A stretch of DNA of 56,871 bases from an uncultured Bacilli bacterium (lineage in GTDB: Bacteria > Bacillota_I > Bacilli_A > RF39 > UBA660): positions 1 to 56,871 of the forward strand of contig CANQDC010000001.1 in NCBI GenBank assembly GCA_947591455.1. Reading direction: 5' to 3'. Made by a program: the position numbers and the translations under genes. Below, one piece after another: positions 1,445 through 13,836 of this stretch (its first letter is position 1; every line of letters begins with the position of its first letter). Below the pieces are notes generated by a model. The model saw nothing but the letters and a program-made list of their open reading frames with translations, did not search any database and was not told the DNA's origin.

Positions 1445-3838
1445 ATGGATGAACATTTTAAATTAGATGTAACAAAAGGAAAAGCCAGAGAAAATTCTAT
1501 TTTTAAAGGTGAAAAATATCGGATTACAATCTTAACAGATCGTTTAGTTCGCTTGGAATATAGTGAAGATGGAATTTTTTATGATGGTTTAACTCAAAGA
1601 ATTATAAATCGTGATTTTGAAACTCCTGAATTTACAGTGCAAGAAGATAATAAATTTTTAGAAATTACCACCAAATATTTTAAATTATCTTATGTAAAAA
1701 ATAAACCATTTCAAGCATCTATTGTTGCCCCAGACGCTAATTTAAAAGTGACTTTATTAAATACTGATAAATTGTGGTATTTCAATCATCCAGAGGCTAG
1801 AAATTTTAAAGGAACGTGTAGTAGTTTAGATGAAAATAGTAGTAAAGCTAATTTTCAAAATGGTTTGTATTCTACCGATGGATTTGCTTCGATTGATGAT
1901 TCAACCTCTTTAAGAATTAATGAGAATGGACAATTAGTTCCTCCTACTAAAAAAAGAGTAGATACCTATCTATTTATGTATCGAAGAGATTTTGGTTTAT
2001 GTTTAAAAGATTATTTTGCCCTTACAGGAAAACCAGTCTTAATACCCAGATATACCTTAGGAATTTGGTGGAATAAAGATGAAATTTATAGTTTTGAAGA
2101 TACAAAACAACTATTGATGAAATTTAGTAAAAATAAAATTCCTATTTCTGTACTTTTATTGGGAAATAATTGGCATAATAAAACGGAACTAAATAAAACG
2201 GGTTTTACGTTTAATCGAACTCTTTTTCCTGATCCAGCTGGTTTTATAAGATATATGCATGAAAGAGGCGTACGGGTTGGAGTAGCGATTGATCCATCAG
2301 AGGGGATTAGTACCAATGAAGAGATGTTTGTAACTATAAAAAACAATTTAGGACTTGTCGATAATAATCATATCCCTTTTAACATTTTTGATGCCCGAAT
2401 GGTAACAGAATATTTTCATACGATTATTAATTCTTTAAATAATTTAGGAATTGATTTGTACTGGATCGATTATTATAACAAAAAAGAGAATTATATGTTG
2501 TCTGCTTTGAATTACTATCATTTTAATGACTACAAAAAAGATCCGAAACGTCGAGGAATTATTTTCTCTCGTGCGAGTGAAGTAGCTCCTCATCGTTTAC
2601 CCATTCATTATTCAGGTCAAACCATTGTAAGTTGGGATACTTTAAAATTATTACCCTTTTATAATTCCACGGCCAGTAATATCGGCGTTTCGTGGTGGAG
2701 TCACGATGTTGGAGGATATAAAGATGGTATCGAAGATGGAGAATTGTATATCCGTTATGTTGAACTCGCTACTTTCAGTCCTATTTTCCGTTTTAGTGCT
2801 AAACAAGGCCATTATTACAAAAGAGAACCATGGAAATGGGATGTTCAAACATTAAATATTGTTCGAGATTATTGTAATTTACGCCATCGTTTTATTCCTT
2901 ATCTATATGCTGAAGCTTACAAATACTATCAAACAGGATTGCCTTTAATTCAACCATTATACTATCAAACTCCTGAAATATATGATGAACCCGCCTATAA
3001 AAATGAATATTACTTTGGTGGCGAATTATTTGTAGCACCAATTACGGTAAAAAAAGACTTAGTTATGAATCGTGCTGTAGAAAAAATATTCTTACCAAAT
3101 GGTATGTGGTATGATTTTAAAACTGGAAAAAAATTCCCAGGGAATAAGCGTTATGTAAGCTTTTATAAAGATGAAGATTATCCAGTTTTTGCTCATGCAG
3201 GATCGATTATTCCTCTAGCTGAATTAGAAGAAAATATTAACGTTACGAATCCACCGAAAAAAATGGAAATTCATGTTTTCCCCGGAAAAAGTAATACTTT
3301 TAGATTATATGAGGATGATGGCTATTCTTCCTTATTTGAATCAGGATATTATATTATGACTACGATTGATTATAATTACTTGCAAAACAATTATACATTA
3401 ATTATTCGCCCGGTTGAAGGAAAGACAGGAATTATTCCAGCAATGAGAGATTATAAAATTCGTTTTCGGAATACCAGAGAAGCAGATGAAGTAATTATTT
3501 ATATTAATAAAGATGTAGTAGCTACAGAAAATTATGTAGAAGAAAATGATTTTATTGTAGAAATAAAGAATGTTCCAACTACAAGTCAAGTGACGATCAA
3601 TTGTAAAGGAAAAGATATAGAAATTGATGCAGTCCGGATTATAAATGAAGAGGTTGATTCCATCATTAGTGATTTACAAATAGAAACAAGATTAAAAGAA
3701 AAAATAGCGAATATTTTCTTTAGTGAATTAGATATTAAAAAGAAAAGAATTGAAATACGAAAACTAAAGAAAGAAGGTTTAGAACCACTATTTATTCGTA
3801 TGTTTTTAAAATTATTAGAATATATAAAAGAAATATAA
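1445..3838 (+). CDS. glycoside hydrolase family 31 (alpha-glucosidase/alpha-xylosidase-like)
   Basis: 797 aa with RBS AAGGTGG upstream. GH31 blocks are present: LYWIDYY (nucleophile region), IIFSRAS...HYSGQTIVSWDTL, WWSHDVGGY, ATFSPIFRF...REPWKW. Confidence 0.85.
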   Translation: MDEHFKLDVTKGKARENSIFKGEKYRITILTDRLVRLEYSEDGIFYDGLTQRIINRDFETPEFTVQEDNKFLEITTKYFKLSYVKNKPFQASIVAPDANLKVTLLNTDKLWYFNHPEARNFKGTCSSLDENSSKANFQNGLYSTDGFASIDDSTSLRINENGQLVPPTKKRVDTYLFMYRRDFGLCLKDYFALTGKPVLIPRYTLGIWWNKDEIYSFEDTKQLLMKFSKNKIPISVLLLGNNWHNKTELNKTGFTFNRTLFPDPAGFIRYMHERGVRVGVAIDPSEGISTNEEMFVTIKNNLGLVDNNHIPFNIFDARMVTEYFHTIINSLNNLGIDLYWIDYYNKKENYMLSALNYYHFNDYKKDPKRRGIIFSRASEVAPHRLPIHYSGQTIVSWDTLKLLPFYNSTASNIGVSWWSHDVGGYKDGIEDGELYIRYVELATFSPIFRFSAKQGHYYKREPWKWDVQTLNIVRDYCNLRHRFIPYLYAEAYKYYQTGLPLIQPLYYQTPEIYDEPAYKNEYYFGGELFVAPITVKKDLVMNRAVEKIFLPNGMWYDFKTGKKFPGNKRYVSFYKDEDYPVFAHAGSIIPLAELEENINVTNPPKKMEIHVFPGKSNTFRLYEDDGYSSLFESGYYIMTTIDYNYLQNNYTLIIRPVEGKTGIIPAMRDYKIRFRNTREADEVIIYINKDVVATENYVEENDFIVEIKNVPTTSQVTINCKGKDIEIDAVRIINEEVDSIISDLQIETRLKEKIANIFFSELDIKKKRIEIRKLKKEGLEPLFIRMFLKLLEYIKEI

Positions 3839-3864
3839 GAAAATGAAAAATAAATAGAAAAAAA

Positions 3865-3894
3865 TTGACAATAACTTCCTATTTCAACTATAAT
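3865..3894 (+). promoter_or_regulatory. sigma-A type promoter of the leuS leader
   Basis: TTGACA (3865-3870), an 18-nt spacer, then TATAAT (3889-3894), directly upstream of the T-box leader. Confidence 0.5.
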
Positions 3895-3899
3895 ACTAA

Positions 3900-4098
3900 T
3901 AAGCGATGAAAAAAGAGTAGTAATAAAAATATTTATAAAAGAGAATTCATGGTTGGTGTAAATGAATATAAATATTTTATGAACTTGCTTTTGGAGCTTT
4001 TTGGGTTATCTCCATTATAGGATTTTAAAGCTAGTTTTACTAGAAATTAAGGTGGTACCACGGCATTTTCGTCCTTAAGAAAATGGCCGTTTTTTTTA
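3900..4098 (+). promoter_or_regulatory. T-box leader riboswitch (probable Leu specifier)
   Basis: Stem I elements GCGATGA...AGAGTA and AGAGA...GGTTGGTGTAAATGAAT. Candidate specifier CTT at 3984-3986. Conserved T-box AATTAAGGTGGTACCACG at 4045-4062, followed by a terminator hairpin and T-run ending about 4098. Confidence 0.85.
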
Positions 4099-4117
4099 TT
4101 TAGAAGGAGGAGAGCGT

Positions 4118-4480
4118 ATGAATATATTGTTTATTTTTTCTTTTTGGCTCATTCTATATATAATCATCTTTATAATTACATATATATGGAATAAAAGAAA
4201 AGTAAAAAAAAGAAAATATGAAGCCATTGGCGAAATGAATTATTTAATTGCTAAGTTTGAATTAAATAAAAAAAGGATTAATTATAAAAAAGAAATTAAA
4301 GTTATTTCGGCTTTAAATAGTTTGATCATTTCGGTTGTCGGGACATTGGTTACTTGCTTACAACTACCTATATTTTTACAATTAGCAATCGGATTTGTCT
4401 TATTATTTGCTCTTATTTATTCCCTGTATGAAATATATGGAAGACACTTATACAATAAACAAAGGAGAGAGAAAAAATGA
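4118..4480 (+). CDS. small membrane protein, translationally coupled to leuS
   Basis: 120 aa with RBS GGAGGAG upstream. It has hydrophobic N- and C-terminal segments around a K/R-rich loop. Its stop overlaps the leuS ATG (ATGA at 4477-4480). Confidence 0.55.
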   Translation: MNILFIFSFWLILYIIIFIITYIWNKRKVKKRKYEAIGEMNYLIAKFELNKKRINYKKEIKVISALNSLIISVVGTLVTCLQLPIFLQLAIGFVLLFALIYSLYEIYGRHLYNKQRREKK

Positions 4481-7284
4481 ATTTTAAAGAAATAGAAGAA
4501 AAATGGCAAAAGAGATGGGAAGAAAAAAAAGTTTTTGAAGCAAAAAATAATTCTTCTAAACCCCCATATTATATCTTAGTAGAATTCCCTTATCCCAGTG
4601 GGGCCGGACTACATGTAGGACATGTTAGAAGTTATACGGCTCAAGATGCACTTGCTAGAATGAAAAGAATGCAAGGATTTAATGTATTGTATCCAATGGG
4701 TTGGGATGCTTTTGGAGCTCCTGCTGAACAATATGCAATAAAAAATCATATTCATCCCAAAGAAGCTGTCAAAGCGAATATTAAAACGTTTAAAAGACAA
4801 ATGCAATCTTTAGGTTTTTCCTTTGATTGGAGTCGCGAATTTTCAACTACCGATCCTGAATATTATAAATGGACACAATGGCAATTTTTACAATTCTATA
4901 AGCATAATATGGCATATAAAGCTTGTGTTCCTGTAAATTGGTGTCCTACTTGTAAAACTGTATTATCGAATGAAGATGCGGCGGGAGGTGTCTGCGAGCG
5001 ATGTGGATCTAAAGTAATCCAAAAGGAAAAATCTCAATGGATGCTTAGAATGAGCGATTATGCGGAAGATTTACTTAAGGGGTTAGAGGATACTAATTTT
5101 GCTGAAAAAGTAAAATTAGGACAAATTAATTGGATTGGCAAAAGTGAAGGAGCCAATGTAACTTTTAAAGTGGCTGATACGGATTACGAATTTGTAGTTT
5201 ATACCACTCGTCCGGATACTTTATTTGGAGTAACTTATTGCGTTTTAAGTCCAGAACATGAATTAGTTTCTAAAATTACTACTAAAGAGAAAGAAAAAGA
5301 AGTAAAAGAATATCAAAGTGCCTGTGCTTTAAAAAATGAAATGGAAAGAACAGAACTTAATAAAGAAAAAACCGGAGTATTTATTGGAAGCTATGCTATG
5401 AATCCAGTAAACAATACAAAAATTCCTATCTATATTAGTGATTATGTTCTTTCAAGCTATGGTACGGGTGCGATTATGGCCGTTCCTGCTCATGATGAAC
5501 GAGATTATGAATTTGCTAAAAAATTTAATCTTCCAATTACTCAAGTATTGGAAGAAGTAACCGGAAAATCTCATGCAGATGAAACCAAAAAGAACAGTAT
5601 TGTGGCGATTGTCTATGATGAAGAAAAGGATGAATATTTAACGATTAATTGGCATAAACAAGGCGGAAGATTGTTTGTTGGAGGAACCATTCATGACGGC
5701 GAAACTCCTTTAGAATGTGCTTTAAGGGAAATAAAAGAAGAAACAGGTTATAGTTCTTTAGAACTTGTTTGTGAAACTCCAAAAGTAAATCATCATTATT
5801 ATGCTTATAATAAAGAGAAATATTTTAATATTGAATGTACTGGTTTTCTGTTTAAATTAAAAAATCATAATCAAGAAGCTCAAGAATTAGATGATGATGA
5901 ATCTTTTGATGTGGAATGGGTTTCTAAAACAACTTTAAGCGAAATAAAAGATGAATTACATGCGAAAATTTTAGAATATGCTACGAATCCAGGGGCTATG
6001 ATTGGCGATGGAATTCACATAAATTCAGAATTCTTAGATGGATTAGATAAAAAAAGTGCTATTGATACGATGATAAAATGGTTAGAAGATAACCAATTAG
6101 GAGAAAGAAAAGTCAATTATAAAATGCGTGATTGGATCTTCTCACGGCAAAGATTCTGGGGAGAACCAATACCAATGATCCATTGTCCAAAATGTGGTTG
6201 GGTACCAATGGATGAAAAAGATTTGCCTCTTTTATTGCCTGATGTTGCAGAATATGAGCCAACAGATACGGGAGAAAGTCCACTAGCGAAAATAACAGAT
6301 TGGGTCAATTGTCAATGTCCAAAATGTCATGGAGCTGCCAAACGTGAAACAGATACGATGCCAAACTGGGCTGGTTCAAGTTGGTATTTCTTACGATTTA
6401 TGGACCCTCATAATACCAAAGAATTCGCAAGTATGGATGCCATGAAATATTGGAATCGGGTAGATTGGTATAATGGTGGAATGGAACACACAGCAAGACA
6501 TTTATTATATGCAAGATTCTGGGTGCAATTCTTATATAATATCGGCTTAGTTCCTAATAAAGAAATGATATGGAAAAGAATTAGTCATGGAATGGTACTT
6601 GGATCAAATAACGAAAAAATGAGTAAATCCAAAGGAAATGTCATCAATCCTGATGATATTGTGAATGAATATGGTGCAGATACGTTACGTATTTACGAAA
6701 TGTTTATGGGAGATTATGAACAAGATGCTCCATGGAGCACCGATTCCCTACGAGGATGTAAGCGTTTCGTTGAAAAAGTAATTCGCCTAAAAGATAAAGT
6801 AAATGAAAAAAGTGGCTATTCAAAAGAATTAGAATCCTTAATTCATAAGAGTATTAAAAAAGTCGAGTACGATTTACTACATATGGGATACAATACCGCA
6901 ATTGCATCATTAATGATTTTAGCCAATGCTTATGCCGATCAAGACCAAATTACCAAAGATGAGTATCGAACCTTATTAATTCTTTTAAATCCAATCGCCC
7001 CTCATATAACAGAAGAGTTAAATGAATTAATAGGAGGCAAACCAATTTATGATTCAGAATGGCCAAAATATGAGGAAGAAAAAACAATTGATAAAGAAAT
7101 AACTATTGCCGTTCAAGTAAATGGAAAACTAAGAGGAACAATTAAAATAGCCAAAGACGAACAAGAAGAGCAAATCAAAGAAAAAGCATTTATGGAAGAA
7201 AATGTCAAAAGACACATTGACCAAAAAGAAATCGTTAAGGTAATTGTAATCCCTAACAAGATAGTAAATATCATTGTAAAATAA
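4477..7284 (+). CDS. leuS: leucyl-tRNA synthetase with an inserted Nudix domain
   Basis: HVGH and KMSKS class I motifs, CP1 editing-domain motifs (TTRPDTLFG, AVPAHDERDYEFA) and RDWIFSRQRFWGEPIP. At 935 aa it is about 130 aa longer than typical bacterial LeuRS, because of the insert at aa 359-508. Confidence 0.97.
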   Translation: MNFKEIEEKWQKRWEEKKVFEAKNNSSKPPYYILVEFPYPSGAGLHVGHVRSYTAQDALARMKRMQGFNVLYPMGWDAFGAPAEQYAIKNHIHPKEAVKANIKTFKRQMQSLGFSFDWSREFSTTDPEYYKWTQWQFLQFYKHNMAYKACVPVNWCPTCKTVLSNEDAAGGVCERCGSKVIQKEKSQWMLRMSDYAEDLLKGLEDTNFAEKVKLGQINWIGKSEGANVTFKVADTDYEFVVYTTRPDTLFGVTYCVLSPEHELVSKITTKEKEKEVKEYQSACALKNEMERTELNKEKTGVFIGSYAMNPVNNTKIPIYISDYVLSSYGTGAIMAVPAHDERDYEFAKKFNLPITQVLEEVTGKSHADETKKNSIVAIVYDEEKDEYLTINWHKQGGRLFVGGTIHDGETPLECALREIKEETGYSSLELVCETPKVNHHYYAYNKEKYFNIECTGFLFKLKNHNQEAQELDDDESFDVEWVSKTTLSEIKDELHAKILEYATNPGAMIGDGIHINSEFLDGLDKKSAIDTMIKWLEDNQLGERKVNYKMRDWIFSRQRFWGEPIPMIHCPKCGWVPMDEKDLPLLLPDVAEYEPTDTGESPLAKITDWVNCQCPKCHGAAKRETDTMPNWAGSSWYFLRFMDPHNTKEFASMDAMKYWNRVDWYNGGMEHTARHLLYARFWVQFLYNIGLVPNKEMIWKRISHGMVLGSNNEKMSKSKGNVINPDDIVNEYGADTLRIYEMFMGDYEQDAPWSTDSLRGCKRFVEKVIRLKDKVNEKSGYSKELESLIHKSIKKVEYDLLHMGYNTAIASLMILANAYADQDQITKDEYRTLLILLNPIAPHITEELNELIGGKPIYDSEWPKYEEEKTIDKEITIAVQVNGKLRGTIKIAKDEQEEQIKEKAFMEENVKRHIDQKEIVKVIVIPNKIVNIIVK

Positions 7285-7290
7285 ATTTGT

Positions 7291-7330
7291 AGACTATTGA
7301 CAAAAAAATGTAAATAGTCTTTTTTTATTT
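7291..7330 (+). terminator. rho-independent terminator after leuS
   Basis: Stem AGACTATT (7291-7298) / AATAGTCT (7313-7320) followed by a T-run. Confidence 0.6.
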
Positions 7331-8128
7331 TTGGAGAGGAGGATATATATTTAAAACTTGTAATTCTTTTTTTAAAGTTAAAAGATCGGGATGAAAAAAT
7401 TGTTCAAAATTATAAGCTTCTTCATGTAAATTTTTAAATGCTAGGGGATGATAATTTAATTGTAAGAATTGCGCTATTGGTTTGGGAATAGGATAAGAAC
7501 AAATGACTTTACAAAACTGTGAATAACTAAAATGTTTAATATAACAAGTTAAATCGATTTCTAAAAAAAGAGATAAACATAGGACATATAATTTCAAAAT
7601 ATCTGTATATTTTGTATTCAGATCGAAAGAATTAAGGTTAAAGGAACAAGAAATAGGATGCCAAAAATCTTGCTTTTTTCGCGAGTTATCTAAATCAATA
7701 AAATAAACTTGATGCTGATTTACTAAAATATTTCGGGCATGTATATCTCCTAAGACAATATACTGATGTAAAAATTTTAAAGTTTGAAATAAAGAGGTAC
7801 AATACTTTAACTTTTCTTCATAAGGAAGAGAAGTGTAAATGCAATCTAAAAAAGTTTGAGCATTTTTTAAATAGGGCATACGATAATAACTTTGAAAGAT
7901 CCTTTCATGTAGAGGAGGTATATGCGAATATTCTATGGTCCCATAATCAAAAGGCTTTATAACAAACTCGTGATTTGGTAATGTCTTTAAATAAGAAAGC
8001 ATACTTCTTTTATCTTCATAAAGAGCTTTAAGTAACGTTTGTTCATTTTCAATAAAAAGATCTCCTCCAGTATGAATTTTATAAATACTGTCCAATTTTT
8101 GTAAATGCTTTAAAGTTTGATAATTCAT
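7325..8128 (-). CDS. protein-kinase-like phosphotransferase (CotS/APH/YtmP-like fold)
   Basis: 267 aa. The catalytic-loop-like GDIHARNILV followed by YFIDLDNS matches the HxDxxxxN...D pattern of the kinase-like superfamily. Confidence 0.55.
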   Translation of the reverse strand: MNYQTLKHLQKLDSIYKIHTGGDLFIENEQTLLKALYEDKRSMLSYLKTLPNHEFVIKPFDYGTIEYSHIPPLHERIFQSYYRMPYLKNAQTFLDCIYTSLPYEEKLKYCTSLFQTLKFLHQYIVLGDIHARNILVNQHQVYFIDLDNSRKKQDFWHPISCSFNLNSFDLNTKYTDILKLYVLCLSLFLEIDLTCYIKHFSYSQFCKVICSYPIPKPIAQFLQLNYHPLAFKNLHEEAYNFEQFFHPDLLTLKKELQVLNIYPPLQK

Positions 8129-8260: not shown

Positions 8261-8437
8261 ATGAAAGTAAAAGTATTTGACGAATCACATGAAAAGGACC
8301 TGGAAAAAGTAATAAATGCTTTTCTAAGTACTACAAACAGTGATATAATTGATATCAAGTATCAAGTTTCTATAGGTGTTTGTGGGGAAGAGCAATTATA
8401 TTGCTTTTCAGCAATGGTAATCTATAGTGAAGAATGA
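8261..8437 (+). CDS. sporulation protein Cse60 (YteV)-like small protein
   Basis: 58-aa ORF missing from the track (too short), with RBS GAGGTGG upstream. The sequence MKVKVFDESHEKDLEKVINAFL...IDIKYQVS...LYCFSAMVIY resembles B. subtilis Cse60 as I recall it. Confidence 0.6.
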   Translation: MKVKVFDESHEKDLEKVINAFLSTTNSDIIDIKYQVSIGVCGEEQLYCFSAMVIYSEE

Positions 8438-10091
8438 GTGGTTTGAGGTGAAAAAAAGTAGTTTTTTAGAAGGAACAATTATTGCCACCCTAGCAATTGT
8501 CATCACCAAAATTATGGGGATGTTATATGTGATTCCTTTTTATGCAATGGTTGGTGAACAAGGAAGTGCTCTATATGCTTATGCATATAATATCTATATT
8601 ATTTTTTTAGATATTTCGAGTGCTGGTTTACCAATAGCAATTAGTAAAATTATTAAAGAATACAATACTTTAAAAATGTATGATGCAAAAATGCGCGCCT
8701 ATAAAATTGGCAAGCGAATCATCACGATTTTATCCATCACGATATTTGTAATTTTATTTGTTTTTGCAAGAACGATTGCCACCCTAATTTTAGGGGAATT
8801 AAGTGGGGGAAATACAATTGAGGATGTTACGTTTGTCATTCGTGCTGTTTCTTTTGCTATTTTAGTGATCCCTTATTTAAGTGTATCAAAAGGCTTTTTA
8901 CAAGGACATAATATTATTAATATATCATCAATTAGCCAAGTGATTGAACAAATGGCACGAATTGCGGTCATTTTAGGAGGAAGCTATGTAGCTATAAATA
9001 TATTGCATTTAAGTTTACGATCAACGATTGGAATTGCTGTATTTGGAGCTTGCGCGGGTGGAATTTGTGCGATTTTTTATATTTTATCCAAAATGAACAA
9101 AAACAAAAAAGAGTTGGGTTTTTTAGAAACTTATCAAAAAGATAATGTTTCAAATAAAGAAATCGCCAAAAAAATTATTACGTATTCGATTCCTTTTATT
9201 ATTATAGCTATAGCAGCATCTATAAATAATTTTATGGATATGGTAATGATTTTAAGAACATTAGAGTTTATGAAAATAGATACCGCAACCATTGAATTTG
9301 CTACCACCGCCATAACCACTTGGAGTGCAAAAATAAGTATGATAGTAAATTCTGTTGCTCTTGGAATGACCACCAGTTTAATACCTACTATTGTTGGTGC
9401 TTATACTTTAAAAAATTGGCAAGAAGTAAATAATAAATTAAATAAAGCATTACAATTTATTTTAGTAATTAGTATTCCTATGTGTGTAGGATTATCCTTA
9501 TTATCCCAAAGTGTATGGAGTGTTTTTTACGGGTTTAATAAAAAGGGTGCTACCATATTTTCTATTCATATATTTGTATCGTTATTTTTTAATTTATATA
9601 CAATAACTTCGTCAACTTTACAAGGGCTTAACAAATTTAGCGCCGTATACAAAAGTACCATAACCGGATTTTTAACGAATATGGCCTTAAATATTCCACT
9701 CATGGTTTTATTCCAAAAAATAGGATCTGCCCCTTATTTAGGAGCGATATTTGCTACCGCCACCGGTTATATTGTATCTTTTACAATTGCGTTATTAATA
9801 TTAAAAAAAGAACATCAATTAAAATATACAGATACATTGAAAACCCTTGGACATATTGTGTTACCAACATTTGCCATGATTGCGGTTGTACTGCTATTAA
9901 AAATAATCATTCCAGTTCAGTTAACGAATAAAGTCTCTTGTTTAATTTATATTGGTATAATTAGTATAATAGGAGCAATAACTTACTTAGGCATCTCTTA
10001 TAAAACTGGATTATTGGAGCACGTATTTGGTAAAAATTATTTAAAAAAAATAATAAAAAAACTTACCTTTGGTAAGATAAGTATTTCTTAA
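8427..10091 (+). CDS. MOP-superfamily flippase (MurJ/SpoVB/YtgP-like polysaccharide or lipid II flippase)
   Basis: 554 aa, about 14 hydrophobic helices, typical size and topology. The start is uncertain (GTG 8427 or GTG 8448). Confidence 0.75.
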   Translation: MKNEWFEVKKSSFLEGTIIATLAIVITKIMGMLYVIPFYAMVGEQGSALYAYAYNIYIIFLDISSAGLPIAISKIIKEYNTLKMYDAKMRAYKIGKRIITILSITIFVILFVFARTIATLILGELSGGNTIEDVTFVIRAVSFAILVIPYLSVSKGFLQGHNIINISSISQVIEQMARIAVILGGSYVAINILHLSLRSTIGIAVFGACAGGICAIFYILSKMNKNKKELGFLETYQKDNVSNKEIAKKIITYSIPFIIIAIAASINNFMDMVMILRTLEFMKIDTATIEFATTAITTWSAKISMIVNSVALGMTTSLIPTIVGAYTLKNWQEVNNKLNKALQFILVISIPMCVGLSLLSQSVWSVFYGFNKKGATIFSIHIFVSLFFNLYTITSSTLQGLNKFSAVYKSTITGFLTNMALNIPLMVLFQKIGSAPYLGAIFATATGYIVSFTIALLILKKEHQLKYTDTLKTLGHIVLPTFAMIAVVLLLKIIIPVQLTNKVSCLIYIGIISIIGAITYLGISYKTGLLEHVFGKNYLKKIIKKLTFGKISIS

Positions 10092-10462: not shown

Positions 10463-11113
10463 GTGATATTTGTGCGTCTTAGAAATGTTAAAAATGCCAA
10501 AGAAAAATTAGAAGCAAGTCCTTTTTTTATTCCGAATCCAAAAGAGTTTAAAGGACAATGGCAAAATGTATTTTCAAAACAATCGGTTGAAAAGAATCCC
10601 ATTCATCTGGAAATAGGAGCCGGAAAAGGGCAGTTTTTAATTGCAATGGCAAAAAAAAATCCCGATATGAACTTTATAGGGATCGAAAAATATGAAAGTG
10701 TTCTAGTAAGAGCAATTGAAAAAGTAAATCAAACCGATTTAAAAAATATTGTGTTTATTTGTGTAGATGCTATGGAGTTAAGAGAAATTTTTGATCATGA
10801 AATTGCTACAATTTATTTGAATTTTTCTGATCCATGGCCCAAAAGTAGACATGCCAAAAGAAGATTAACGAGTCCAATATTTTTAAATATCTATGATCAT
10901 GTATTTAAAAATAATCCCATGATTATTCAAAAAACAGATAATTTGGATTTATTTTCCTATAGTTTAGAAACTTTGAGCCAACATGGGTATTGTTTTTTAC
11001 AAGTAAGTTTACATTTACAAGACACCCAAATAGCCAATGTGGAAACCGAATATGAACAAAAATTTAAAGAAAAAGGAATAAAAATTAACTATTTAAAAGC
11101 TTGTAAAAAATAA
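10463..11113 (+). CDS. trmB: tRNA (guanine46-N7)-methyltransferase
   Basis: SAM-binding block HLEIGAGKGQFL plus FIGIE and NFSDPWPK...HAKRRL. The true start is probably GTG 10472 (MRLRNVKNA...). Confidence 0.85.
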   Translation: MIFVRLRNVKNAKEKLEASPFFIPNPKEFKGQWQNVFSKQSVEKNPIHLEIGAGKGQFLIAMAKKNPDMNFIGIEKYESVLVRAIEKVNQTDLKNIVFICVDAMELREIFDHEIATIYLNFSDPWPKSRHAKRRLTSPIFLNIYDHVFKNNPMIIQKTDNLDLFSYSLETLSQHGYCFLQVSLHLQDTQIANVETEYEQKFKEKGIKINYLKACKK

Positions 11114-13621: not shown

Positions 13622-13644
13622 TATAACAAAAAACGAAACGAAGA

Positions 13645-13836
13645 AAAATAGAAGTAGTTCATATTTATTTTGGTAGAGAGTCCGTGGCGGGTGAAAACGG
13701 ATAAAAGATACGAATGAAGTTACCTATTTGGAGTGGAAACGGTGACGCGTTATAGTTTTTAAAGTGCATGAGAAATCATGAATTAAGGTGGTACCGCGAA
13801 TATTTCGTCCTTATGATGAAGATTCGCTTTTTTTAT
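13645..13836 (+). promoter_or_regulatory. T-box leader riboswitch (probable Tyr specifier)
   Basis: AGAGAGTCCGTGGCGGGTGAAAACGGA distal stem I motif. Candidate specifier TAC at 13721-13723. T-box AATTAAGGTGGTACCGCG at 13781-13798. Terminator arms GCGAAT (13796-13801) / ATTCGC (13822-13827) plus a T-run. Confidence 0.85.

Follow-up and report, generated by a model that had tools for sequence, protein, structure and literature searches.

A leucyl-tRNA synthetase (LeuRS) with a complete Nudix hydrolase domain nested inside its CP1 editing domain is encoded by the leuS gene on contig CANQDC010000001.1 of an uncultured Bacilli bacterium (assembly GCA_947591455.1). Positions 1 to 56,871 of the contig were analysed and are here called the window. 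All 80 related loci examined have the LeuRS-Nudix architecture, which is thus fixed in a clade of uncultured gut Bacilli, and it recurs widely but patchily among the ultra-small bacteria of the candidate phyla radiation (CPR, or Patescibacteria). From the sequence and structure comparisons given below, we consider it somewhat probable that the nested domain is an add-on small-molecule pyrophosphohydrolase, with substrates of the diadenosine polyphosphate (ApnA) type as the leading candidate.

A Nudix domain nested inside the LeuRS editing domain

The whole 935-aa (amino acid) protein was recognised by the profile TIGR00396 (leuS_bact, NCBIfam) at 976.5 bits, with a cut-off of 548.4, and it matched Thermus thermophilus LeuRS (1H3N) by phmmer at E=2.7e-217. 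The full-length AlphaFold model (predicted local distance difference test score, pLDDT, 80.5) gave target-normalised template-modelling scores (TM-scores) of 0.69-0.75 against solved LeuRS structures. The HIGH, KMSKS, T-rich and PAHD motifs were invariant or nearly so across 61 relatives. By these profile and motif matches, the product of the open reading frame (ORF) 4477..7284 is a bacterial LeuRS with intact synthetic and editing motifs. Its parts are as follows.

4477..7284, + strand: leuS, bacterial-type LeuRS with nested Nudix domain, 935 aa
4477..5127, + strand: catalytic Rossmann core, N-terminal half (aa 1-217); PF00133 covers aa 9-217
4612-4623, + strand: HIGH motif, as HVGH (aa 46-49), found by motif scan
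5128..5565, + strand: CP1 editing domain, part one (aa 218-363); PF13603 model positions 2-153 match aa 218-371
5203-5220, + strand: T-rich editing motif TTRPDT (aa 243-248)
5485-5496, + strand: PAHD editing motif (aa 337-340)
5566..5979, + strand: nested Nudix hydrolase domain (aa 364-501, 138 aa), from PF00293, deletion test, AlphaFold and Foldseek
5683..5751, + strand: Nudix box GX5EX7REUXEEXGU, GTIHDGETPLECALREIKEETGY (aa 403-425)
5791..5802, + strand: HHYY (aa 439-442), with H439, H440, Y441 and Y442 invariant
5980..6087, + strand: CP1 editing domain, part two (aa 502-537); PF13603 reaches model position 185 after deletion of the insert
6088..7281, + strand: second half of the catalytic core, anticodon-binding domain and C-terminal domain, from PF00133, PF08264 (aa 783-898) and alignment to 1H3N
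6616-6630, + strand: KMSKS motif (aa 714-718)

An earlier note on this DNA had reported an insertion of about 150 aa at 5551-6000 with a perfect Nudix box at aa 403-425, and both the coordinates and the motif were confirmed by Pfam, motif scan and alignment. PF00293 (Pfam) was matched at aa 373-497 of the whole protein with E=8.6e-14. When the segment 5551-6000 was searched alone, the same profile gave E=3e-15 and 56.8 bits, above the gathering threshold of 21.1, and was covered from model position 4 to 129 of 134. The box GTIHDGETPLECALREIKEETGY was the sole Nudix-box match in a six-frame translation of the 56.9-kb window. Its residues G403, E409, R417, E418, E421, E422, T423 and G424 were invariant in 61 relatives.

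The insertion was then placed by alignment. Query residues 5-360 corresponded to residues 8-364 of T. thermophilus LeuRS 1H3N and query residues 511-722 to residues 380-592, and about 150 query residues stood in place of a 15-residue loop (365-379). Against P0322, an insert-free CPR LeuRS, 157 residues were found where P0322 has 47. The window protein belongs to the same family as the canonical bacterial LeuRS enzymes (1H3N and 2BTE of T. thermophilus, 4AQ7 and 4ARC of E. coli, 6Q89 of N. gonorrhoeae) and has the same domain order, but none of the solved LeuRS, with 760-880 residues, has a domain at the CP1 loop. The 593-637 segment of T. thermophilus LeuRS, which we take to be the leucine-specific domain region, has no counterpart in the window LeuRS.

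The earlier note had put the insertion at the C-terminal edge of CP1, and this placement is revised here. The editing-domain profile PF13603 (185 positions) stopped at model position 153 before the insert, and it became contiguous over positions 2-185 once aa 364-501 were deleted in silico. This indicates that the Nudix domain is nested inside the CP1 editing domain, at about position 150 of the 185. The insert begins some 25 residues past the conserved AHD aspartates, and about 35 residues of the editing domain (aa 502-537) follow it. The nesting has two levels: the Nudix domain lies in a CP1 surface loop, and CP1 itself is inserted in the Rossmann fold. The G+C content across the insert is 0.28-0.37, with no break relative to the rest of leuS. 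NUDIX was the only Pfam match within the insert. Neither a Hint nor an endonuclease domain was seen, and on this ground an identity as intein or mobile element was ruled out.

AlphaFold was used to predict the structure of the insert. The Nudix region reached pLDDT 84-94 in the full-length model. The insert modelled alone was predicted as an independent Nudix fold with alpha/beta/alpha secondary structure (pLDDT 85.6, predicted template-modelling score 0.81), and the predicted helix 411-423 carries the REx2EE of the Nudix box. These models predict that the Nudix domain folds on its own.

Few enzymes are as conserved as the aminoacyl-tRNA synthetases, and when those of bacteria carry an additional catalytic domain, which is rare, it is usually informative on side reactions, regulation or resistance. 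Here, what would be a whole second enzyme lies inside the proofreading domain of an essential synthetase, kept by selection in 80 loci and recurrent across the CPR radiation. A full-text literature search on Nudix with LeuRS, aminoacyl-tRNA synthetases, the editing domain or CPR found no description of this architecture. PMC12077802 appeared to be an earlier mention and was dismissed, as Nudix occurs there only in a cited reference. Both component families are well known, and there are precedents for an additional enzyme domain on a synthetase, such as isoleucyl-tRNA synthetase (IleRS) with GNAT. LeuRS-Nudix proteins are already in public databases, with no label beyond LeuRS or 'class I tRNA ligase family protein'.

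The nearest comparable fusions are IleRS+GNAT (NF040702) and NadM, the nicotinamide mononucleotide (NMN) adenylyltransferase/Nudix protein (NF003791), in which an adenylate-forming or adenylyl-transfer enzyme is joined to a small-molecule-modifying or Nudix domain. They differ from the window protein in partners and topology, and the window protein scored far below both cut-offs. Both are terminal fusions or are joined at other sites. A domain-insertion survey (Protein Sci 2026, PMC13114784) describes PF13603 as a classic example of a module inserted into synthetases and as 'insertion-exclusive', with zero host instances in 213 events. In contrast, PF13603 here hosts a Nudix domain, in hundreds of species.

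Fixation in gut Bacilli and recurrence in CPR

Species-representative genomes were scanned, at least 259 confirmed candidates were obtained, and the best 80 loci were examined. The Nudix domain adjoins the LeuRS editing motif in all 80. In 73 loci the ORF is complete, at about 935-970 aa, and has the Nudix domain in frame and at the same site; six of the other seven were cut by contig ends or Ns, and one had a broken frame. The loci come from metagenome-assembled genomes (MAGs) of rabbit, buffalo, sheep, chicken, mouse and human gut. Among the names in their record titles are uncultured Bacilli, 'Tenericutes', Clostridium sp. CAG:451 and CAG:524, and Candidatus Scybalousia, Onthousia and Onthocola, the last of which NCBI places in Bacilli incertae sedis. 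PF00293 was also present in all of the 120 best 90%-identity clusters for the full-length protein. These loci agree with the proposal of the earlier note that the Nudix segment is an in-frame domain insertion in an intact synthetase. An assembly chimera or fusion artefact was ruled out by the 73 complete in-frame ORFs, the independent MAG projects and hosts, and the lack of a compositional break.

The conservation of the insert was measured at the protein and codon levels. Mean pairwise identity was 64% in the insert, 60-62% in the catalytic core and 52% in the C-terminal part. The ratio of nonsynonymous to synonymous substitution rates (dN/dS) was calculated from 62 pairs with 80-97% amino-acid identity, and the medians were 0.12 (Nudix domain), 0.065 (core) and 0.081 (editing domain). 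Every catalytic box residue was invariant among 61-74 species-level clade sequences. These values point to purifying selection on the Nudix insert.

The first homology search gave only short fragments of 103-260 aa, because of uncorrected long-read contigs such as L001 (86 kb) and L002 (23 kb). Both contigs carry the same leuS-Nudix gene, and every gene on them is broken into short ORFs in the uncorrected long-read pattern. Pseudogenes and a code-4 organism were ruled out: the fragment contigs are long-read assemblies with frameshifts in all genes, and the window leuS has 24 TGG codons and zero in-frame TGA. For annotation, generic labels hide the Nudix domain, and long-read assemblies split LeuRS-Nudix proteins into fragments.

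Bacilli-type leuS-Nudix genes were seen at L042, L054, L063, L073, L079, L080 and L082, in MAGs labelled Roseburia sp., Muribaculaceae or Candidatus Paceibacterota. These seven labels are implausible for this gene, which suggests mis-binning or mislabelling; the reading frame at L080 is broken. A candidate free-living donor of the insert, P0008 ('ADP-ribose pyrophosphatase', JGI, 980-bp contig), was not used. Its N-terminal half is like ADP-ribose (ADPR) pyrophosphatase, its C-terminal half is near-identical in motifs to the LeuRS-nested Nudix, and the switch lies at REIKEETGY. It is probably a chimera.

The insert was searched against 1.84 billion representative proteins, and 419 matches were obtained at E<=1e-3. 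LeuRS makes up most of the best 150 of these 419, and CPR LeuRS-Nudix proteins are the best matches. Every named LeuRS example in this wider set belongs to CPR, namely Moranbacteria, Parcubacteria, Pacebacteria, Saccharimonadales and 'Patescibacteria group'. CPR examples include KKP58971.1 (Candidatus Moranbacteria GW2011_GWF1_34_10), MBU6323229.1 and HSX17785.1 (Saccharimonadales). They have the same host, the same insertion point (PF13603 position 145-152) and the same Nudix family as the window protein. They differ in that their Nudix is only 26-46% identical, its presence is patchy and some boxes are degenerate, and some CPR LeuRS have an extra Nudix at a second site or extra HAD or alpha/beta-hydrolase domains.

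Two insertion sites were distinguished. The CP1 loop described above (S2) holds 56 domain copies, and 10 lie at another site (S1), which follows the first Rossmann half and precedes CP1. Up to three Nudix copies occur in one LeuRS; P0015 (1140 aa) and P0029 (1146 aa), for example, have two or three. Copies from a single protein share only 19-47% identity, and those at S1 group with the S1 copies of other proteins, which indicates that the multi-copy arrangements are old.

Among the 120 LeuRS closest to a Moranbacteria example, most carry the Nudix domain and about a third, with 800-835 aa, are without it. One of the insert-free proteins, P0322, has a contiguous PF13603 match and is 90% identical over the best local alignment to a Nudix-bearing Moranbacteria LeuRS. 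Unrelated domains were found at the same loop of other CPR LeuRS: a PF10706 NTase-like domain in P0309, alpha/beta (Ser) hydrolase domains in P0413 and P0353, and a HAD phosphatase domain in P0358. The extra enzyme domains (also in P0364) lie at the CP1 loop or in the pre-CP1 linker, alone or with Nudix, in LeuRS of up to 1558 aa. The CP1 loop and the pre-CP1 linker appear from these proteins to be hot spots for nested hydrolase domains in CPR.

Other hosts of the same Nudix family were found in a set of five proteins (P0105, P0086, P0088, P0148 and P0122). One host is a 1345-aa class I synthetase, IleRS-like, in which the family is nested along with a histidine-phosphatase domain; another is RNase PH, where it lies between the two domains of the enzyme. 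Fusions join it to GNAT and M17 peptidase, to WecG glycosyltransferase and, in three Nudix copies, to His_Phos_1.

A shorter paralogue was found at L083 (ENA ERZ27241801 k141_31643), a syntenic Bacilli relative. This locus encodes a full LeuRS with a CPR-like nested Nudix at 2-2755, followed by the 347-aa paralogue P0021 at 3002-4045 and a DUF402 gene at 4055-4597. P0021 has what is left of an N-terminus, a CP1 editing domain that looks intact, and a Nudix of the window type whose box is degenerate (G403->E, E418->G). The P0021 cluster has 12 members, mostly of the same length and with an open frame. P0021 may be what remains of a leuS that was replaced, or it may be a free-standing factor that edits in trans. 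'Solo' Nudix relatives of 150-200 aa also occur in the representative library, and half of them have a LeuRS-nested nearest neighbour. They were not adopted as a free-living family, as they may be gene fragments.

Candidate activity of the nested domain and its alternatives

All synthetic-site and editing-site motifs are intact beside the nested Nudix domain, so the protein would be a bifunctional enzyme. LeuRS would charge and proofread tRNA-Leu as usual. The acidic Nudix domain, with its canonical REx2EE metal-binding helix, would carry out Mg2+-dependent hydrolysis of a small nucleoside-polyphosphate compound. The likeliest substrates would be dinucleoside polyphosphates of the Ap4A (diadenosine tetraphosphate) or ApnN type, which are by-products of adenylate-forming synthetases, or a related nucleoside triphosphate (NTP)-type 'house-cleaning' substrate.

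The substrate class was approached through the X-loop and the charge of the domain. Y441 and Y442 of the invariant HHYY form a Tyr-Tyr pair at +16/+17 after the Nudix box. Among the LeuRS-nested relatives (50% clustering), the residue at +16 is aromatic in 54 of 56 and that at +17 in 50 of 56. An X-loop tyrosine about 16-18 residues after the Nudix box coincides with ApnA-hydrolase activity (PMC5389931), and Y441/Y442 provide this tyrosine of the ApnA-hydrolase subgroup. The window Nudix domain has a net charge of -14 and an isoelectric point (pI) of 4.8. Over 79 relatives the clade mean is -11 (range -3 to -17, pI 4.8-5.9, never basic), whereas E. coli RppH has +12 and pI 10.05. An RppH-type basic surface is not seen in the net charge, which is only a proxy for the binding surface. 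Because of the Tyr-Tyr pair and the acidic domain, we infer a small Mg-nucleotide substrate rather than an RNA end.

The insert model was compared with solved structures by Foldseek, and 521 PDB matches at E<=1e-3 were obtained; those listed are Nudix enzymes, with target-normalised TM-scores of up to 0.80. The best match was 2AZW, an uncharacterised Enterococcus faecalis Nudix. It was followed by many E. coli RppH entries, including Ap4A-bound RppH 7SP3, then by Aquifex Ap4A hydrolase 3I7U (target-normalised TM-score 0.78, root-mean-square deviation 2.8) and T. thermophilus Ap6A hydrolase. The Nudix enzymes of the RppH/ApnA-hydrolase type (4S2X, 7SP3; 3I7U; Tth Ndx1 1VC8) share with the insert the alpha/beta/alpha fold, at target-normalised TM-scores of 0.62-0.78, the complete Nudix box and the aromatic Tyr at +17, which is Y77 in RppH. 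They differ from it in being free-standing and only 17-24% identical; the window Nudix is nested and acidic (RppH is basic, pI 10) and has the family motifs YLTINW, GGRLF, NHHYYAYNK and LDDDExFxVEW. The suggestion of the earlier note that Ap4A is hydrolysed gains from the invariant Tyr-Tyr, the acidic surface and the RppH/ApnA-hydrolase-like fold, but none of these is specific to that substrate.

Several results weigh against such a small-molecule pyrophosphohydrolase or against its link to LeuRS. In Foldseek, many different Nudix classes gave E-values no more than two orders of magnitude apart, and the ranking is not decisive. The X-loop tyrosine is a correlate of ApnA activity and no proof of it. 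The best sequence matches are RNA-acting enzymes (Dcp2; RppH, YtkD) and not Ap4A hydrolases, and the likeness to characterised Nudix enzymes is weak and generic, with NCBIfam scores of at most 32 bits against cut-offs of at least 103 bits. The best NCBIfam matches were RppH, NudB and YtkD/BsRppH, all far below their cut-offs, and by NCBIfam and PDB profiles membership in a characterised Nudix subfamily was ruled out. In CPR, unrelated domains occupy the same LeuRS loop, and close relatives have no insert at all. This patchy presence and the unrelated domains weaken the case for a Nudix that serves LeuRS chemistry, and the CP1 site may simply be permissive and the Nudix domain independent of LeuRS. 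The box is canonical in 48 of the 56 nested copies at S2 and degenerate in a minority, with a 'Q-type' box (G..Q...RMEI.EETGY) in CPR LeuRS P0062, P0096 and P0133. These degenerate nested copies and the box of P0021 show that the family apparently also has non-catalytic roles.

Such independence is the core of an alternative that we regard as possible and rather doubtful. The insert would be a house-cleaning hydrolase, MutT-like or acting generally on nucleoside diphosphates linked to another moiety (NDP-X), which sits in a permissive loop of an essential, well-expressed gene of small-genome bacteria and is co-expressed with LeuRS without a mechanistic link to it. The NTase-like, alpha/beta-hydrolase and HAD domains in the same CPR loop, the insert-free third of the closest Moranbacteria relatives, the variable length of the CP1 loop among solved LeuRS, and the fusions of the same family to WecG and to the GNAT/M17 peptidase protein are in line with it. 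A functional link to LeuRS is suggested, on the other hand, by the fact that LeuRS hosts most of the nearest relatives of the Nudix domain among the 1.84 billion representatives, at two CP1-associated sites and in up to three copies. The IleRS-like and RNase PH hosts also handle tRNA 3' ends, the CP1+Nudix unit is kept as a free-standing paralogue, and the insert is fixed in the 80 Bacilli-clade loci, with a conservation about that of the core. The same tRNA-binding hosts (LeuRS CP1, the IleRS-like enzyme and RNase PH all bind tRNA 3' ends) could be read as pointing to an RNA- or tRNA-end enzyme, which would work on an end that LeuRS presents or that lies close by, and remove 5'-triphosphates or Np4 caps in the manner of RppH or Dcp2, or a pyrophosphate that blocks the tRNA 3'-CCA end while the editing domain binds it. 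The best PDB sequence-profile match was the Dcp2 Nudix domain (E=1.7e-6, residues 22-141), and RppH and YtkD/BsRppH lead the NCBIfam matches, as E. coli RppH dominates the top Foldseek matches. We consider this activity unlikely. The domain is acidic in every clade member and RppH is basic, and the RppH equivalog models (NCBIfam NF001936 and relatives) gave 32.1 bits, far short of the cut-off of 118. The match to Dcp2 is confined to the Nudix fold; the flanks are LeuRS editing domain, and no regulatory domain is seen. Moreover, mature tRNA has a 5' monophosphate.

A tRNA-end function also enters a broader view, in which the nested LeuRS hydrolases (Nudix, HAD, alpha/beta-hydrolase and NTase-like) would be proofreading add-ons acting in cis on synthetase-bound molecules. 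They might repair blocked tRNA 3'-CCA ends, e.g. pyrophosphorylated ones, or destroy aminoacyl-nucleotide-type inhibitors or toxic nucleotides at the enzyme. CP1 would then serve minimal-genome bacteria as a general platform on which enzymes of quality control or self-protection dock, and the persistence of P0021 and the IleRS-like and RNase PH hosts would reflect a common tRNA-end-directed function. We hold this view to be improbable as well. Still less probable is a non-catalytic Nudix that serves the editing domain as a structural, tRNA-positioning or nucleotide-sensing regulatory module. The Q-type copies and P0021, whose 12 cluster members keep an equally long open frame in spite of the substituted box, speak for it, but the catalytic residues of the box are all invariant in the window's clade, at a dN/dS of 0.12, and most S2 copies are canonical. 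The earlier note had also raised the hydrolysis of mis-activated aminoacyl-adenylates, which would make the Nudix domain a built-in pre-transfer editing site. Its proximity in one polypeptide, with the editing domain as host, is the only point in its favour, and no data point to these compounds. Aminoacyl-adenylates are acyl-phosphate mixed anhydrides and lie outside the nucleoside-diphosphate-X compounds that define the Nudix substrate class. CP1 retains its own canonical editing site, intact and conserved, and the same Nudix family also occurs in non-synthetase hosts. Adenylate hydrolysis by the nested domain is unlikely on these grounds, to the point of being hardly credible.

The favoured reading, a pyrophosphohydrolase for small nucleotides, has consequences of its own. 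If the Nudix domain degrades Ap4A-type compounds, the producer of these alarmones would be physically joined to a hydrolase for them, and point mutants would offer a simple system for testing the role of synthetase-made dinucleotides. If the domain is instead independent of LeuRS, the CP1 loop would be a natural, highly permissive insertion site that is useful for engineering, and minimal genomes would place housekeeping hydrolases within essential genes. Even in that case the editing domain of LeuRS is able to act as a host, contrary to the survey PMC13114784.

The leuS operon and its neighbourhood

The features upstream of leuS and the neighbouring genes are as follows.

1445-3838, + strand: GH31 glycosidase
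3897..4079, + strand: T-box leader that governs leuS and the small ORF before it; 101.5 bits with Rfam RF00230 (gathering score 93)
3984-3986, + strand: T-box specifier codon CUU (Leu), in the context UGAA-CUU-G
4118..4480, + strand: small membrane-protein ORF, 120 aa; its stop overlaps the leuS start (ATGA)
7325-8128, - strand: 267-aa ORF, convergent with leuS
8427-10091, + strand: MurJ/Polysacc_synt flippase
10463-11113, + strand: Methyltransf_4 (PF02390) methyltransferase
13632-13815, + strand: second T-box, 103.6 bits
13788-15080, + strand: tyrosyl-tRNA synthetase ORF

T-boxes were compared between the window and the seven of 11 relatives that were above the Rfam threshold. The context UGAA-CUU-R was found in all eight leuS-upstream T-boxes. 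Because a Leu (CUU) T-box stands upstream in the window and in seven relatives, a housekeeping role of leuS is indicated. This lends indirect support to the view that the gene is the organism's regular LeuRS, regulated by a T-box that senses tRNA-Leu.

A homologue of the 120-aa ORF lies directly 5' of leuS in 48 of the 80 related loci by tblastn, and this adjacency indicates that the ORF is a conserved leuS operon partner. A Pfam search of the 120-aa ORF gave no match. The flippase recurs 3' of leuS in both L001 and L083, the GH31 gene recurs 5' in L001, and the methyltransferase recurs in L083; from these shared neighbours, the two loci are orthologous to the window.

The 267-aa ORF carries a protein-kinase-like catalytic-loop motif (GDIHARNILV...YFIDLD) and had no Pfam match. 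The second T-box stands directly 5' of the tyrosyl-tRNA synthetase ORF. The listed GTG start of that ORF at 13788 overlaps the leader, and the true start is probably further 3'.

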